The notes: generated by a model not told the origin, from the sequence alone. DNA of 64,000 nucleotides from Candidatus Sungiibacteriota bacterium (GCA_016432465.1 CP066690.1:683666-747665), one strand, 5' to 3'; shown: positions 1,680 to 63,181, counted from the stretch's first letter. A program made the numbers and translations.

Positions 1680-1779
1680 CCCCGTTAGAGATAAGGTTTC
1701 TACCCTGATAACAAAGATCACCAAAATTACAGGTGAGTATTATTCAAAGGCGCTGTGGATAACTAAATCTCTAACGGGG
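1680..1779 (+). repeat. MITE-like palindromic element with 13-bp terminal inverted repeats CCCCGTTAGAGAT / ATCTCTAACGGGG
   Basis: Arms at 1680-1692 and 1767-1779. The same ACCCCGTTAGA core recurs at 38357-38427 and 41398-41526. Confidence 0.55.
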
Positions 1780-37297: not shown

Positions 37298-37474
37298 ATG
37301 GATGATCACCATCAAAATAAATGTATGGCTTGTTCTTGTCCTTGCGACATGCATAAAGAGCATACCCACCACGAAGAGGATCACAATATGGACCACGAAG
37401 AAGGCCACGAGAAAGGAGGGTGTATGGCTTGTTCTTGTCCTTGCGACGAGCACAAAGAGCATAACCACGAATAG
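37298..37474 (+). CDS. Cys/His-rich metal-binding peptide (58 aa) with a duplicated CMACSCPCD motif. Metallothionein-like
   Basis: Hand translation MDDHHQNKCMACSCPCDMHKEHTHHEEDHNMDHEEGHEKGGCMACSCPCDEHKEHNHE. Below the ORF-track cutoff. Confidence 0.55.
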   Translation: MDDHHQNKCMACSCPCDMHKEHTHHEEDHNMDHEEGHEKGGCMACSCPCDEHKEHNHE

Positions 37475-38033: not shown

Positions 38034-38867
38034 ATGGATTTATCTCTCGTTATTCCGGCATTTATTGCTGGTATCCTGACATTTTTAGCTCCCTGCACCT
38101 TGCCTTTGGTGCCGGGTTATTTGGGCTTTATCAGCGGGGCCTCGCTGGAGGACTTAAAAGACCCGATGAAGGCGTCCACGGCCCGTCGTAAAATTTTTCG
38201 GAACGGTTTATTTTTTATTCTTGGATTTAGCGCCGTCTTTATTATTATGGGTACGTTAGTTGGATTTGTCGGAGCCTCTCTGCTTGCCCCTTACAGATTT
38301 TGGTTATCAAGAATTGGCGGCGTATTTGTTATTCTTTTCGGTCTTTTTATGCTTCACCCCGTTAGAAATCCGCCCCGCTTCTTAAGCGCGGCGGCAGCCG
38401 TCTTGGGGCGGCTTATTTCTAACGGGGTGAATGTTTTAAAAATTTCGTTTCTTGTTCGGGAAAAACAACTTAAGGCGCCGGGCGCATTGGAAAGAGGAAA
38501 GTCGCTAACTTCTTTTATATTAGGTTCGGCTTTTGCTTTTGGTTGGACTCCTTGCGTGGGGCCCATTCTTGGGTCCATTCTTCTTCTTGCTTCAACTTCA
38601 ACCACTGCGTTTCAGGGGTCTTTGCTTTTGGCTGTTTTTTCCGCAGGTCTTGCGGTTCCGTTTCTTCTGGTGGCACTGGGTATTGGTTCGGCCGCGAAAT
38701 TCATTTCCAAAATTTCTAAGTTTTTGAGCGTGGTATCTGTTATCGGCGGCCTTCTGCTTATTTTCTTGGGTATATTATTGCTTACGGGCAATATGGCCCT
38801 TCTGATTTCTTGGGGCTACCGTCTATTTCAATTCATCAACTATGAAAGGTTATTGGATTACTTATGA
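38034..38867 (+). CDS. ccdA: cytochrome c-type biogenesis/disulfide transporter CcdA (DsbD family)
   Basis: TM Cys pair (LAPCTLPLVP..., WTPCVGPILGSIL). A 71-nt palindromic insertion lies at 38357-38427. Confidence 0.75.
   Translation: MDLSLVIPAFIAGILTFLAPCTLPLVPGYLGFISGASLEDLKDPMKASTARRKIFRNGLFFILGFSAVFIIMGTLVGFVGASLLAPYRFWLSRIGGVFVILFGLFMLHPVRNPPRFLSAAAAVLGRLISNGVNVLKISFLVREKQLKAPGALERGKSLTSFILGSAFAFGWTPCVGPILGSILLLASTSTTAFQGSLLLAVFSAGLAVPFLLVALGIGSAAKFISKISKFLSVVSVIGGLLLIFLGILLLTGNMALLISWGYRLFQFINYERLLDYL
38357..38427 (+). repeat. CCCCGTTAGAAAT / ATTTCTAACGGGG palindromic element inserted within the ccdA coding sequence
   Basis: Arms at 38357-38369 and 38415-38427, with a nested CCGCCCC/GGGGCGG pair inside. 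Confidence 0.5.
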
Positions 38868-41390: not shown

Positions 41391-41397
41391 ATATGAA

Positions 41398-41526
41398 CCC
41401 CGTTAGAAGTCTTGGGCAGAAAAATTTTATGAAAATTTTTCTGCGTGTATATCGCGGGAATTATCAAAATAACCATGAAAAACAACAACATAACACAAAG
41501 TGAGGACGCTCCGACTTCTAACGGGG
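41398..41526 (+). repeat. CCCCGTTAGAAGTC / GACTTCTAACGGGG palindromic element spanning the 5' end of the downstream redoxin gene
   Basis: Arms at 41398-41411 and 41513-41526. Confidence 0.5.
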
Positions 41527-41954
41527 TGAAAGCCCCGGAATTTATAACCGAAAATGAACAATGGCTCAATTCAGAGCCGCCGAAGATCGCTGATTTAAAA
41601 GGCAAGGTGGTTTTAATTAAATTTTGGACTTTTATGTGCTCTTGGTGCCAGCAGGATTTGCCGGGCATTATGGAGATTGAAAAGAAATACAAAGACAAGG
41701 GGTTGGTGGTAATCGGCATCCATTCCCCGGAAACAACTTTTGAGCGCGACGTAGAAGCATTAAAGAAACAAATGAAAGTTTTGAAAGTGGACTTTCCGGT
41801 TCTTACCGATAACGCAAGACAAAATTGGAAAGCATACAAAGTAGAAAACTGGCCGGCGTATTATTTAATTGACCGTGAAGGAAACATTGCTTTTAGCATT
41901 CTTGGTCCGGGAGTCGAGGACCAATTAGAAAATAAAATTAAAAATTTAATATAA
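41475..41954 (+). CDS. thioredoxin-fold redoxin (AhpC/TSA/TlpA-like)
   Basis: CSWC active site. The start is uncertain (41445 or 41475). Confidence 0.6.
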   Translation: MKNNNITQSEDAPTSNGVKAPEFITENEQWLNSEPPKIADLKGKVVLIKFWTFMCSWCQQDLPGIMEIEKKYKDKGLVVIGIHSPETTFERDVEALKKQMKVLKVDFPVLTDNARQNWKAYKVENWPAYYLIDREGNIAFSILGPGVEDQLENKIKNLI

Positions 41955-42868: not shown

Positions 42869-42949
42869 ATTAAAATCCTTTTTCGTATTATGATTTCTAA
42901 CGGGTCAAGTTGTTGCGAAACACCACAATTTAATAAAGGGGGTGAGGAT

Positions 42950-44431
42950 ATGGAAGAGAATAAAACTGAAACACATGAAAAATCCGTGATCGCGCGGGAG
43001 CTTTGGTTTCAAGAAAACGAAAAAGAATTTATCGCAGAACACAGTATTGGCGCAACCATAAGAGCCGGCGACCGAACAGCGGAAACGACCGACCCCAAGG
43101 GCGGATATCGAGAAGGAGGATTTGTTACCTTGAAAATTCAAAAAGCTGACGGTAGCTTTGATCCCTTGGAGACAACGGTAGTGGTATACTCAGCTAAAAA
43201 AAAGGTGTTGGGAGAAATTAAGCCGGAAGATTTAGAAGGAACGCCATTGTCCCAGAAAACCAAAACAGCGCTCATTGAAAAATTAACGCGTCTTTACGGG
43301 AGAGATTTTACCGACAACGACACTGTTACGATTGTGCGGTTTGAATACGCAGATGATCTAAAGGAAGCTGGTAAGAAGATACTTGCATCTCTTCAGACCT
43401 TTGCTCAAAATGATTTACTCGAATTAAAAAACGGGCCTTTTCGTTTGGCCCCTGAATACAAGCCATCTGGTCTTACCCCTGAAAATATCAAAGGCCGGCC
43501 ACTTTCATTTATTATCGGTGAACAGCCCTCCGAGTATGCCGTCAGCCCCCTGATGTGGAATGCAGAATTCAAAATGAGGGGTTCAAATGGACTTTTTTTG
43601 CCCGTTGATATCGCCCCGGATAAAAAGGGTAATCTGAAAGAGTTTATTGATAAAATCGTTGAGATCGGAAATTTGGTTTTTCGTGTTTTGACTATTACCA
43701 ACCCCTACAAAATCGATGCCTTGCAGTACTTCAAAAATCTGCAAGAGAGATATCCTGATCGAGTGGATTTGAGCGAGGATGCTTTGCGTATTGGCGCTAC
43801 CAATCAAATACTAATCGGGCCTGATAACAAGTTTTACGTTATTAACTCCGATGGTCGCGGCATGGCAAATAGTATTGAGGAATTTCTTAGTGGTAAAAAC
43901 CGGGGAAATTTGGAGGCAAAACACGTTGGTCTGGTCGGCGCCGGCGGCGCTGCTCGGGGTATCGCTTATGAGGTTGCCAAGCGAATGGGTCCTCATGGTT
44001 TGCTGACAATATTTAACCGAACGCAGGAAAAGGCCGTAGCTCTGAAAGCGGAACTATCTAGCTATTTACCACAAACACCGATAGAAGCCCGGGGCCTCAA
44101 TGAACTGCCCGGTCAGGCGAAAGAACAGGAAATAATTATTTCGTCCATTACTGAGGGTGACCCTCTTTCCGATTCTGGTGTATATAAAACCCTTCCCCGG
44201 GGAATTTTGATTGTCGATGCTAATTATGGTCCTAAATCTATTATTGAACAAAAGGCGCATGAGGCAGGACGTGACGATCTTGACATTCATGATGGTGCCG
44301 GTATGGTCGTTGAGGGCTATATTATTGCATCACAAGAACTTTCGCGATTGTGGAAATATGAAGTTTCCAGGGAAGTGTATCGGGAGATCGGATTTGTGTT
44401 TGGTTATAGGAAGCGGGCTGCGAGTTCGTAA
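42950..44431 (+). CDS. shikimate dehydrogenase-like (AroE-family) domain fused to a roughly 195-aa N-terminal domain of unknown function
   Basis: SPLMWNA, TNPYK, NSDGRG and VGAGGAARGIAYEV Rossmann motif. Strong RBS GGGGGTGAGG before the ATG at 42950. Confidence 0.55.
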   Translation: MEENKTETHEKSVIARELWFQENEKEFIAEHSIGATIRAGDRTAETTDPKGGYREGGFVTLKIQKADGSFDPLETTVVVYSAKKKVLGEIKPEDLEGTPLSQKTKTALIEKLTRLYGRDFTDNDTVTIVRFEYADDLKEAGKKILASLQTFAQNDLLELKNGPFRLAPEYKPSGLTPENIKGRPLSFIIGEQPSEYAVSPLMWNAEFKMRGSNGLFLPVDIAPDKKGNLKEFIDKIVEIGNLVFRVLTITNPYKIDALQYFKNLQERYPDRVDLSEDALRIGATNQILIGPDNKFYVINSDGRGMANSIEEFLSGKNRGNLEAKHVGLVGAGGAARGIAYEVAKRMGPHGLLTIFNRTQEKAVALKAELSSYLPQTPIEARGLNELPGQAKEQEIIISSITEGDPLSDSGVYKTLPRGILIVDANYGPKSIIEQKAHEAGRDDLDIHDGAGMVVEGYIIASQELSRLWKYEVSREVYREIGFVFGYRKRAASS

Positions 44432-62351: not shown

Positions 62352-63181
62352 ACACCAGCCGTATTGTTTATACATCCAAAGAGACTAAGGGCCCGGGGAT
62401 TTTATCAAAAAAAGCGCCGAAGATAGCTGGAGTCTCTGTGCTTTTTATACTGCTGGTCAGCAGTCTTTTTTATTTAGCGCGGTTGCCCAATTGGCAGGTT
62501 GCTAACTTTAGTTTCTCCGGCCTGAAAACGCTTGATCAAAATATGCTGCAGAAAAAGGTTATGAAAATACTTGAGGGTAACTATGCGCTTATTATTCCAA
62601 AAAGATCTTTCTTTTTCGTTAATTCTGATAAATTATCTAAGGCAGTTTTAAATGATTTCCCCAACATTCAGTCCGTTTCCGTCACTAAAAAATTTCCAGA
62701 TTCCGTTAAAATTGCGGTTGAGGAACGTGAGCTTTGGGGGATTTTTTGCGCTAAAGCGGTCAAAAAAGACGTTGCGGCGCAATGCGTTTACGTTGACAAA
62801 ACCGGTTTTGCCTACGAGCAGGCGCCGGATTCTGCAGGATTTCTTATAACCAGAATAAACACTGAAGGATTTTCTCCGGAAGTGCCGTCCCAAATTCTTG
62901 AGCCGCCCCTTACAGAACGGATGCTGTTTTTAGCCGAAGAACTTAGGAAAAACTTGGGCTTGGAAGTTATAGGATATGAACTTTCTAAAAAAGTACCGCG
63001 CGAAATTTGGGTTGTGACCAGCGAAGGTTTTAAAATTTACTTTAATAAAGATGATGATTGGGTTAATGCTTTTAGGGTCTTAAAAACAGTTTTGGATGAA
63101 GAAATAAAAGATAAACGGCCGCAACTGGATTATATTGATCTTAGGTTTGGAAATAAAGTGTTTTACAAGCTACTGCCATAA
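62348..63181 (+). CDS. ftsQ: cell division protein FtsQ/DivIB (POTRA domain)
   Basis: N-terminal TM segment. POTRA and FtsQ beta-domain pattern. Confidence 0.6.
   Translation: MNTSRIVYTSKETKGPGILSKKAPKIAGVSVLFILLVSSLFYLARLPNWQVANFSFSGLKTLDQNMLQKKVMKILEGNYALIIPKRSFFFVNSDKLSKAVLNDFPNIQSVSVTKKFPDSVKIAVEERELWGIFCAKAVKKDVAAQCVYVDKTGFAYEQAPDSAGFLITRINTEGFSPEVPSQILEPPLTERMLFLAEELRKNLGLEVIGYELSKKVPREIWVVTSEGFKIYFNKDDDWVNAFRVLKTVLDEEIKDKRPQLDYIDLRFGNKVFYKLLP

Follow-up and report, generated by a model that had tools for sequence, protein, structure and literature searches.

The 64,000-nucleotide stretch of DNA analysed here (GCA_016432465.1 CP066690.1:683666-747665, hereafter the window) comes from Candidatus Sungiibacteriota, a tiny groundwater bacterium and Patescibacterium. 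It contains a ccdA gene, encoding a cytochrome c biogenesis / DsbD-type thiol-disulfide transporter, within which a palindromic element lies in frame at positions 38357-38427. We propose that the ccdA segment is, in all likelihood, a non-autonomous, hairpin-shaped transposable element resembling a MITE (miniature inverted-repeat transposable element), belonging to a family that we call F1, and that it would be read through as a near-neutral passenger of its host gene. The features of the locus are as follows.

38034..38867, + strand: ccdA, an open reading frame (ORF) of 277 aa
38355..38429, + strand: segment CAC...GTG without counterpart in uninserted orthologs, 75 nt, codons 108-132, HPVRNPPRFLSAAAAVLGRLISNGV
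38353..38356, + strand: left flank TTCA, where a target-site duplication would lie, giving the CA of the His codon
38357..38369, + strand: left arm CCCCGTTAGAAAT, 5' side of the basal stem, the same in all five F1-bearing ccdA alleles
38370..38376, + strand: second stem, 5' side, CCGCCCC, pairing with 38405-38411
38377..38387, + strand: small hairpin A in the fold, GCTT-CTT-AAGC, differing in sequence among copies
38389..38400, + strand: small hairpin B in the fold, CGGC-GGCA-GCCG, conserved within the ccdA-type subfamily
38405..38411, + strand: second stem, 3' side, GGGGCGG, followed by a 3-nt bulge, CTT (38412-38414)
38415..38427, + strand: right arm ATTTCTAACGGGG, 3' side of the basal stem
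38428..38431, + strand: right flank TGAA, reverse-complementary to TTCA on the left and thus lengthening the stem

The palindrome with its nested CCGCCCC/GGGGCGG pair, noticed in the initial annotation of the window, was confirmed by repeat finding and by RNA folding. The layout of 38357-38427 is CCCCGTTAGAAAT-CCGCCCC-GCTTCTTAAGC-G-CGGCGGCAGCCG-TCTT-GGGGCGG-CTT-ATTTCTAACGGGG, a near-perfect palindrome in which perfect 13-bp arms (CCCCGTTAGAAAT/ATTTCTAACGGGG) enclose the nested pair and the two small hairpins. Repeat finding returned 22-nt arms (38353-38374 and 38410-38431) that are 91% complementary, plus a nested 10-nt pair. The RNA fold of 38345-38440 is a three-way junction with a predicted energy of -53.1 kcal/mol, against -28.5 +/- 3.2 kcal/mol for shuffles of the same segment (n = 200; z = -7.7), none of the 200 being as stable. 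The arm 13-mer, with up to two mismatches, occurs eight times in the window compared with 2.4 expected, a count attained in 0/100 shuffles. The palindrome is thus real and not a product of chance. A chance palindrome or an assembly artefact would have to be considered since the sequence comes from a metagenome-assembled genome, but this has a negligible probability in view of the z value, of the identical protein found on eight contigs (one of 923 kb) and of related inserts in independent assemblies from other samples. The strong intragenic mRNA hairpin put forward in the same annotation is borne out as a predicted fold and may also form in the transcript.

The ccdA product matched the Pfam family DsbD_TM (PF02683) with E = 7.7e-15, the match being split into two stretches, and the Thermus CcdA structure (PDB 5VKV) with E = 6e-28, the alignment being interrupted at query residues 108/153. 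Both of its transmembrane (TM) cysteines are intact (APCTLP and WTPCVGP); C21 and C174 are invariant in the ortholog alignment (A1), which places one Cys each in TM1 and TM4, as DsbD_TM requires. The protein is 100% identical to P0001, also from Candidatus Sungiibacteriota. As had been annotated, the element lies wholly within the ccdA frame and leaves it unbroken, with ORF 38034..38867 reading ...GLFML HPVRNPPRFLSAAAAVLGRLISNGV NVLKIS.... Alignment with the best 120 CcdA orthologs (66-81% identity) showed that most are 252 aa long, with precisely HPVRNPPRFLSAAAAVLGRLISNGV missing from them after GLFML and before N(V/I)LKIP. Seven of these 120 have an insert at this site and ~94% have none; every ortholog with extra residues there has a palindromic element, and none has the loop without the repeat. 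The proposal that the insertion adds a peptide to a membrane protein is therefore upheld for the extra residues and amended for their number, which is 25 (75 nt) rather than ~23.

The insert codons, CAC CCC GTT AGA AAT ... ATT TCT AAC GGG GTG, would give the peptide HPVRNPPR...ISNGV with a net charge of +3, and NPPRFLSAAAAVLGR is an example of the peptide expected if the element is translated. Judging by the break in the 5VKV alignment, the insert lies where TM3 ends, ahead of the TM3-TM4 linker. According to the positive-inside rule, loops rich in K/R are cytoplasmic; because loops 1-2 and 3-4 are K/R-rich, the insert side is probably cytoplasmic.

The arms define a family that extends far beyond this gene. 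A scan for CCCCGTTAGARRT-N42-72-AYYTCTAACGGGG, with one genome per GTDB species, returned at least 120 loci, and the matches listed are spread over at least ~12 phyla. According to the record titles, these loci belong to Patescibacteria (56 of the at least 120), Deltaproteobacteria / Desulfobacterota (25), Planctomycetota (15), Omnitrophota (4), Gammaproteobacteria (4) and Elusimicrobia (2), with one locus each in KSB1, Ratteibacteria, Stahlbacteria, Edwardsbacteria, Nitrospiraceae and Clostridia, and eight unclassified. The F1 copies are 28-141 nt long and fall into several subfamilies, with interiors ranging from nothing (28-32-nt hairpins) to ~115 nt; the ccdA-type three-way junction is also found in Elusimicrobia, Parcubacteria and Saccharibacteria loci.

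An exact direct repeat, nearly always of exactly 4 nt, abuts the arms in 73/127 non-redundant copies (57%), compared with 8% when flanks were paired from different copies. The duplications follow the consensus T-N-W-A, the commonest being TTTA (16), TAAA (16), TTCA (11), TCAA (8), TGAA (7) and TTGA (5); these six are all one-base variants of TTAA, and TTAA itself was seen in 1/73. One copy of 29 nt is nested inside another copy with a TAAG duplication (L079). Because of these 4-bp flanking duplications, nested copies and many unrelated sites, F1 is, as judged from sequence, a MITE-like family bearing marks of transposition. It shares with MITEs the terminal inverted repeats, a duplication of fixed length (at the level of the family) and copies that are short, transposase-free and present at multiple sites. 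In Rfam, neither the element nor a deltaproteobacterial copy had a match even at permissive thresholds, the best on the element being miRNA hairpin models with E = 0.1. No description of the arms was found in the searchable literature, where the arm string occurs in eight unrelated papers; nor did literature searches turn up any relevant report of MITEs, or of palindromes lying in frame, from candidate phyla. A viral vector for F1 was considered and rejected, as only two IMG/VR contigs carry copies.

The relation of F1 to reading frames is close. The length plus 4 is a multiple of 3 in 73/128 copies and in 17/18 of the copies within long ORFs. Among the genes that hold a copy in frame are those for glycyl-tRNA synthetase (GlyRS), Tex, DNA polymerase III alpha (DnaE), a Mur ligase, RluD and the initiation factor IF-2, in which a 32-nt copy adds 12 aa, as well as HypD, indolepyruvate oxidoreductase, an FKBP and radical-SAM enzymes; of these, DnaE, IF-2 and GlyRS are essential. 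Nearly all in-frame copies are read in one frame, xPVR(N/S)...(I/T)SNG(V/A); the third frame has a TAG inside the left arm, where 14 upstream ORFs terminate. In ccdA itself we found eight inserted alleles, all of them in frame, with inserts of 72, 75, 78 or 102 nt; one of these, L131, came from a DNA scan independent of ORF calling. The initial annotation had called the insertion tolerated: the frame is kept in 8/8 inserted alleles, a pattern which, on sequence grounds, suggests both translation of the insert and its tolerance.

These frames also bear on the alternative that the insert is absent from the protein, through intron-like removal or through ribosomal bypass of the kind known from T4 gene 60 and mitochondrial 'byp' elements. 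Bypass elements feature a very stable hairpin within coding sequence, and the insert is short and mobile. Removal or bypass needs no constraint on frame or stops, and yet the eight ccdA alleles and 17/18 of the other intragenic copies are in frame and stop-free; there are also no matched take-off and landing codons (CTT / AAT). A self-splicing intron, a ribozyme or another curated RNA family was likewise set aside, with no Rfam covariance model matching. Since frame and stop-freedom would go unconserved if the insert were removed or bypassed, we regard this alternative as very improbable.

Other copies sit on gene starts and promoters. Those with a TGAA duplication have an A immediately before it (ATGAA) in 15/18 cases, on one side only, and the last G of the arm together with the TG of the duplication makes a new GTG where the gene used to start. 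Many of them hold a new in-frame ATG, which gives N-termini of the form M-x(2-10)-(I/T)SNGV. Copies with a TTGA duplication are directly followed by a TTGACA-like -35 box, with a -10 box 17 nt downstream, and the duplication regenerates the -35 box. The copies concerned are listed below.

Start-codon copies, across phyla: loci L010-L126, for example L029, L039, L074, L032, L041, L076 and L078
TTGA-duplication copies: L034 5049-5200; L071 5301-5450 (promoter of a tRNA gene); L092, L095, L119 and L122

The mechanism that we consider probable for ccdA starts from the empty site, which reads ATGCTT|AACGTG, ATGCTT|AATATT or ATGTTG|AATGTT in uninserted alleles (L007, L136 and L137 among them). The element would have integrated at the tetranucleotide TTAA that spans the Leu107 and Asn codons, CTT|AAT (codons 107/108 of the uninserted gene). 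Together with the duplicated or flank bases it amounts to 75 nt, so the frame would be kept, and the frame struck would be the one that is open through both arms, leaving the gene intact. Ribosomes would then read through the element and add 25 residues at the cytoplasmic end of TM3, which the transporter would tolerate. The element would do nothing necessary for CcdA, would persist as a selectively near-neutral sequence like its sister copies in other housekeeping genes, and the strong mRNA hairpin would be a by-product.

Several observations weigh against this reading. The flanks of the ccdA copy are non-identical (TTCA on the left versus TGAA, TAAA or TTAA on the right) and thus present no clean target duplication. 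The carriers are scattered, that is polyphyletic, on a neighbour-joining (NJ) tree of CcdA. The arms are invariant while the synonymous sites of the host gene are nearly saturated, an excess over what a neutral passenger would show. A search of the 120 loci, each spanning at most 8 kb, revealed no transposase or autonomous element with F1 arms, although loci of this size do not suffice to show its absence. Lastly, AlphaFold2 run on a 20-sequence alignment gave a mean predicted local distance difference test (pLDDT) score of 53.6, with values below 50 for residues 108-172, so that the fold of the insert is unreadable.

The first two of these points concern the history of the site. Among the 120 closest orthologs the seven inserts comprise five F1 copies and two copies of a different palindrome, F2 (in P0002 and P0004), which has the arms CCCCCACACCAAT...ATTGGTGTGGGGG, is 102 nt long and has the same flanks as F1. 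Between the two F2 copies the arms are identical and the interiors ~36% identical; elsewhere F2 occurs in minimal form as a 28-nt perfect palindrome (L019 6156-6183) and as a variant (L084 ~1971-2000). A junction scan of metagenomes with GGNCTNTTTATGCTTCACCCC gave five matches, four of them due to chance and one a real ccdA carrier of the same type as L005. On the NJ tree, which with 252 columns is weak evidence, the window allele P0001 (F1) is sister to P0002 (F2), P0004 (F2) to the empty P0053 (89%) and P0012 (F1) to the empty P0107. Such a pattern would be compatible with repeated gain or with repeated seamless loss. The left flank TTCA is common to all inserted ccdA alleles, F1 and F2 alike, and differs from the empty-site sequence; the right flank in the other ccdA alleles is TAAA or TTAA, and all of these give synonymous Val codons, GTN. 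The flank pair TTCA...TAAA also occurs at independent copies in GlyRS, in Tex and at two other loci. The positions are as follows.

F2 copies at the ccdA site in two orthologs: L002 1313-1414 and L003 3322-3423, 102 nt each
Non-identical flank pair TTCA...TAAA (or TGAA/TTAA): window 38353-38431; L001; L004-L006; L042 4373-4446; L115 4779-4846; L010; L030

In the ccdA allele of P0012 (L005 74-943 / L131) we also observed an additional 13-aa insertion in the TM3-TM4 linker, TFSIFERAAHIGR, which resembles a local duplication of SLIFERGRP.

One way to account for such a history is recurrent site-specific insertion with seamless loss, the TTAA/TGAA site being a hot spot for both F1 and F2 that is served by a piggyBac-like enzyme, so that the present copy would be young and not ancestral. 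The polyphyletic carriers with their filled/empty and F1/F2 sister pairs would be expected from it, as would arms that are perfect in every allele and T-N-W-A duplications that are mostly one base off TTAA. The ends of the elements are comparable too, F1 having TNNA|CCCC-GT-TAGAAA and piggyBac TTAA|CCC-TAGAAAG. The piggyBac transposon, with its end TTAA|CCCTAGAAAGATAG, is excised seamlessly, and its excised ends keep 4 nt of donor flank (PMC7351741); by analogy, carry-over of such a flank might have produced the mixed flanks TTCA...TAAA. On the other hand, the odd left flank TTCA shared by all inserted alleles suggests a single origin, the targets of the family are otherwise promiscuous, and the support from the tree is weakened by its few columns and that from piggyBac by the failure of a search with the ISEcp1 transposase, described below. 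We consider a hot spot of this kind possible but rather doubtful.

The best lead to a mobilising enzyme for F1 is a DDE/DDD transposase of the piggyBac/IS1380 type, a suggestion drawn from resemblance only. The IS1380 family comprises bacterial relatives of piggyBac (PMC10813416), and we confirmed the ISEcp1 end as CCTAGATTCTACG, ISEcp1 being annotated as IS1380-like. F1 is like piggyBac and the IS1380 members ISEcp1 and IS1247 in having a 4-bp TTAA-type duplication and CCC...GGG termini, with CCC followed by TAGAAA, and its patchy, footprint-free presence and absence at one site is what would be expected from piggyBac-type seamless excision. In contrast, members of IS1380 usually have 4-5-bp repeats and a length of 1.5-2 kb, whereas in F1 the TTAA duplication is rare and no transposase was found beside or between the arms. 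We therefore treat the link as a lead and not as membership. Within these loci (at most 8 kb each), the DNA between arms that lie 0.4-4 kb from each other holds ordinary genes and no transposase-like ORF, and all-against-all clustering of the 866 ORFs of the 120 loci returned housekeeping families only, with no ORF family recurring near the copies. When the ISEcp1 transposase served as phmmer query, none of the 2958 six-frame ORFs from the window and all loci matched, which is weak evidence given one distant query and small loci.

The invariance of the arms was quantified in the five F1 ccdA alleles. Their host synonymous third positions are 0.43-0.49 identical, apart from the close pair L001/L004 (0.77), whereas 9-10 of the third positions of the ten arm codons are identical, only the flank-derived GTN codon varying. 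Since the third positions of the arms are invariant while the host synonymous sites have diverged, the arms would be either constrained at the nucleotide level or younger than the genes that carry them. A recent recombination tract around the insert was not evident, the 20 flanking codons on each side being no closer between carriers than between carrier and non-carrier.

The stems were examined in an alignment of nine copies of the ccdA-type subfamily. In this alignment 96% of cells pair and seven pairs change on both sides, a result matched by 0/500 shuffles; when partners were slid by 1-3 columns, pairing fell to 36-51%. The second stem covaries among copies (CCCC/GGGG, CTCC/GGAG, CTTC/GAAG), and in small hairpin A 3/4 pairs change on both sides. 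U-G wobbles are present only on the strand that corresponds to the ccdA sense strand, which is compatible with a constraint acting on a single strand, be it RNA or single-stranded DNA.

These data can also be read as exaptation, in which selection for a host function in ccdA would act on the peptide or on the hairpin, the latter serving in the mRNA as, for example, a site of pausing, of stabilisation or of RNase III action. The synonymous invariance of the arms and the second stem, the compensated stem changes with their sense-strand wobbles, and the apparent lack of a recently shared tract are what it would predict, and 7-8 alleles, 66-87% identical, have a hairpin at this one site, drawn from two families. 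Against this, the large majority of close orthologs manage without the element, the sister alleles P0053 and P0107 being empty, and the interiors vary freely, as between the two F2 alleles. The same arms moreover occur at unrelated sites that number in the hundreds, so that their conservation may reflect the transposition machinery or young independent insertions. A search for intragenic terminator or promoter signals found none above chance. Exaptation thus appears unlikely to us, and a near-neutral MITE-like passenger remains our preferred explanation for the ccdA segment.

The closest parallel to F1 is found in the palindromic elements of Rickettsia (RPE; work of Ogata et al. 2000 as summarised in PMC10969869), which are inserted in frame in Rickettsia genes. 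RPE and F1 are both palindromic and non-autonomous, are found in frame in numerous housekeeping genes, unrelated to one another, of a bacterium with a small genome, leave the gene intact while adding a peptide specific to the family, and have intergenic copies too. They differ in that RPE have a ~100-150-bp consensus, whereas F1 conserves only its ~13-nt arms, with copies down to 28-32 nt; F1 has a clear 4-bp flanking duplication and ~12 phyla of hosts, whereas RPE are confined to one genus, and the two appear unrelated in sequence. By analogy F1 would work as RPE do; with a Patescibacterium as host and arms that match nothing in Rfam, we do not file it as a member.

Other bacterial MITEs found within genes, namely ERIC, Correia/NEMIS and BOX elements and the palindromic repeats with coding potential of Methanocaldococcus, resemble F1 in being short, with inverted-repeat ends, no transposase gene and some copies in ORFs, and their copies may alter gene ends, promoters or terminators; they have a full-length consensus and a narrow host range, in contrast to the free interior and very wide host range of F1. 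REP/REPIN sequences, mobilised by RAYT, share with F1 the short hairpin repeats and conserved, covarying stems, but this assignment was rejected, REP/REPIN being extragenic with a 5' GTAG, no duplication and a RAYT gene, none of which applies to F1, with its many intragenic copies and its 4-bp duplication. Integron attC sites were rejected as well, since their order is RYYYAAC...GTTRRRY, with AAC and GTT pointing inwards, whereas the element has the reverse (GTTAGAA...TTCTAAC) and no cassette array.

In addition to the ccdA copy, the window holds further F1 sequences, making three full copies with different interiors and a lone arm. The arm variants of the two other full copies are compensated (GAGAT/ATCTC and GAAGT/ACTTC).

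1680..1779, + strand: third full copy, 100 nt, arms GAGAT/ATCTC, intergenic, without flanking duplication, fold of -39.6 kcal/mol
41398..41526, + strand: second full copy, 129 nt, arms GAAGT/ACTTC, TGAA duplication at 41394-41397 and 41527-41530
42893..42905, + strand: lone right arm ATTTCTAACGGGT, in the first codons (MISNGS) of ORF 42890..44431 (513 aa)

The copy at 41398..41526 lies exactly at the start codon of a gene for a redoxin, aatATGAA|element|TGAAAGCCCCGGAATTT, the orthologs of which begin with MKAPEF. The old start, aatATGAA, is left on the left side of the element, and the redoxin now starts at an ATG inside the element (41475), thereby gaining MKNNNITQSEDAPTSNGV ahead of KAPEF. 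As regards the lone arm, a better Shine-Dalgarno sequence and ATG (GGGGGTGAGGATATG) were observed ~60 nt downstream of the start of ORF 42890..44431, the upstream start of which may be an artefact of a decayed element.

ccdA is part of a redox cluster that also comprises a DUF3179 gene, three redoxin genes, and genes for a MerC-like protein and for a pyridine-nucleotide disulfide oxidoreductase. The gap that separates DUF3179 from the first redoxin holds a small His/Cys-rich ORF (37298-37474), in which the repeat CMACSCPCD...HKEH occurs twice and which, from its sequence, looks like a metal-binding peptide. Only two tRNA matches in the 64-kb window passed the Rfam gathering thresholds; the second, at 417-480, did so barely (36 bits), and ARAGORN found no tRNA there. 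The segment 63182-64000 has a higher G+C content than the remainder of the window, follows the last ORF of at least 110 aa (which ends at 63181) and runs to the window's last base. Rfam gave no match for this segment (best E = 0.06), which may represent a decayed element or an RNA with structure.

As far as ccdA is concerned, the finding is modest: with 25 residues added by a mobile hairpin, the TM3/linker junction of a thiol-disulfide transporter appears to tolerate inserts. The case is an RPE-like phenomenon in another organism, and the element involved, seemingly unrelated to RPE, belongs to a family that is apparently undescribed. A wider novelty may lie in the minimal arms, the free interior, the distribution over ~12 phyla, the TTAA-like duplication and the placement on start codons and -35 boxes. 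On a tentative view, F1 and F2 could belong to an undescribed superfamily of minimal hairpin transposons (CCCC-N9...N9-GGGG) in many phyla, with piggyBac/IS1380-like seamless cut-and-paste transposition and gene-compatible arms; if true, this would explain how they colonise genomes with scarcely any spare DNA, as well as their invariant arms. If confirmed, the family would be a source of annotation artefacts, in the form of false N-termini and unexplained 'ISNGV/PVRN' inserts in proteins of the candidate phyla radiation (CPR). It would also serve as a marker of horizontal exchange among groundwater bacteria, and might give access to a bacterial transposase that is seamless and a relative of piggyBac.

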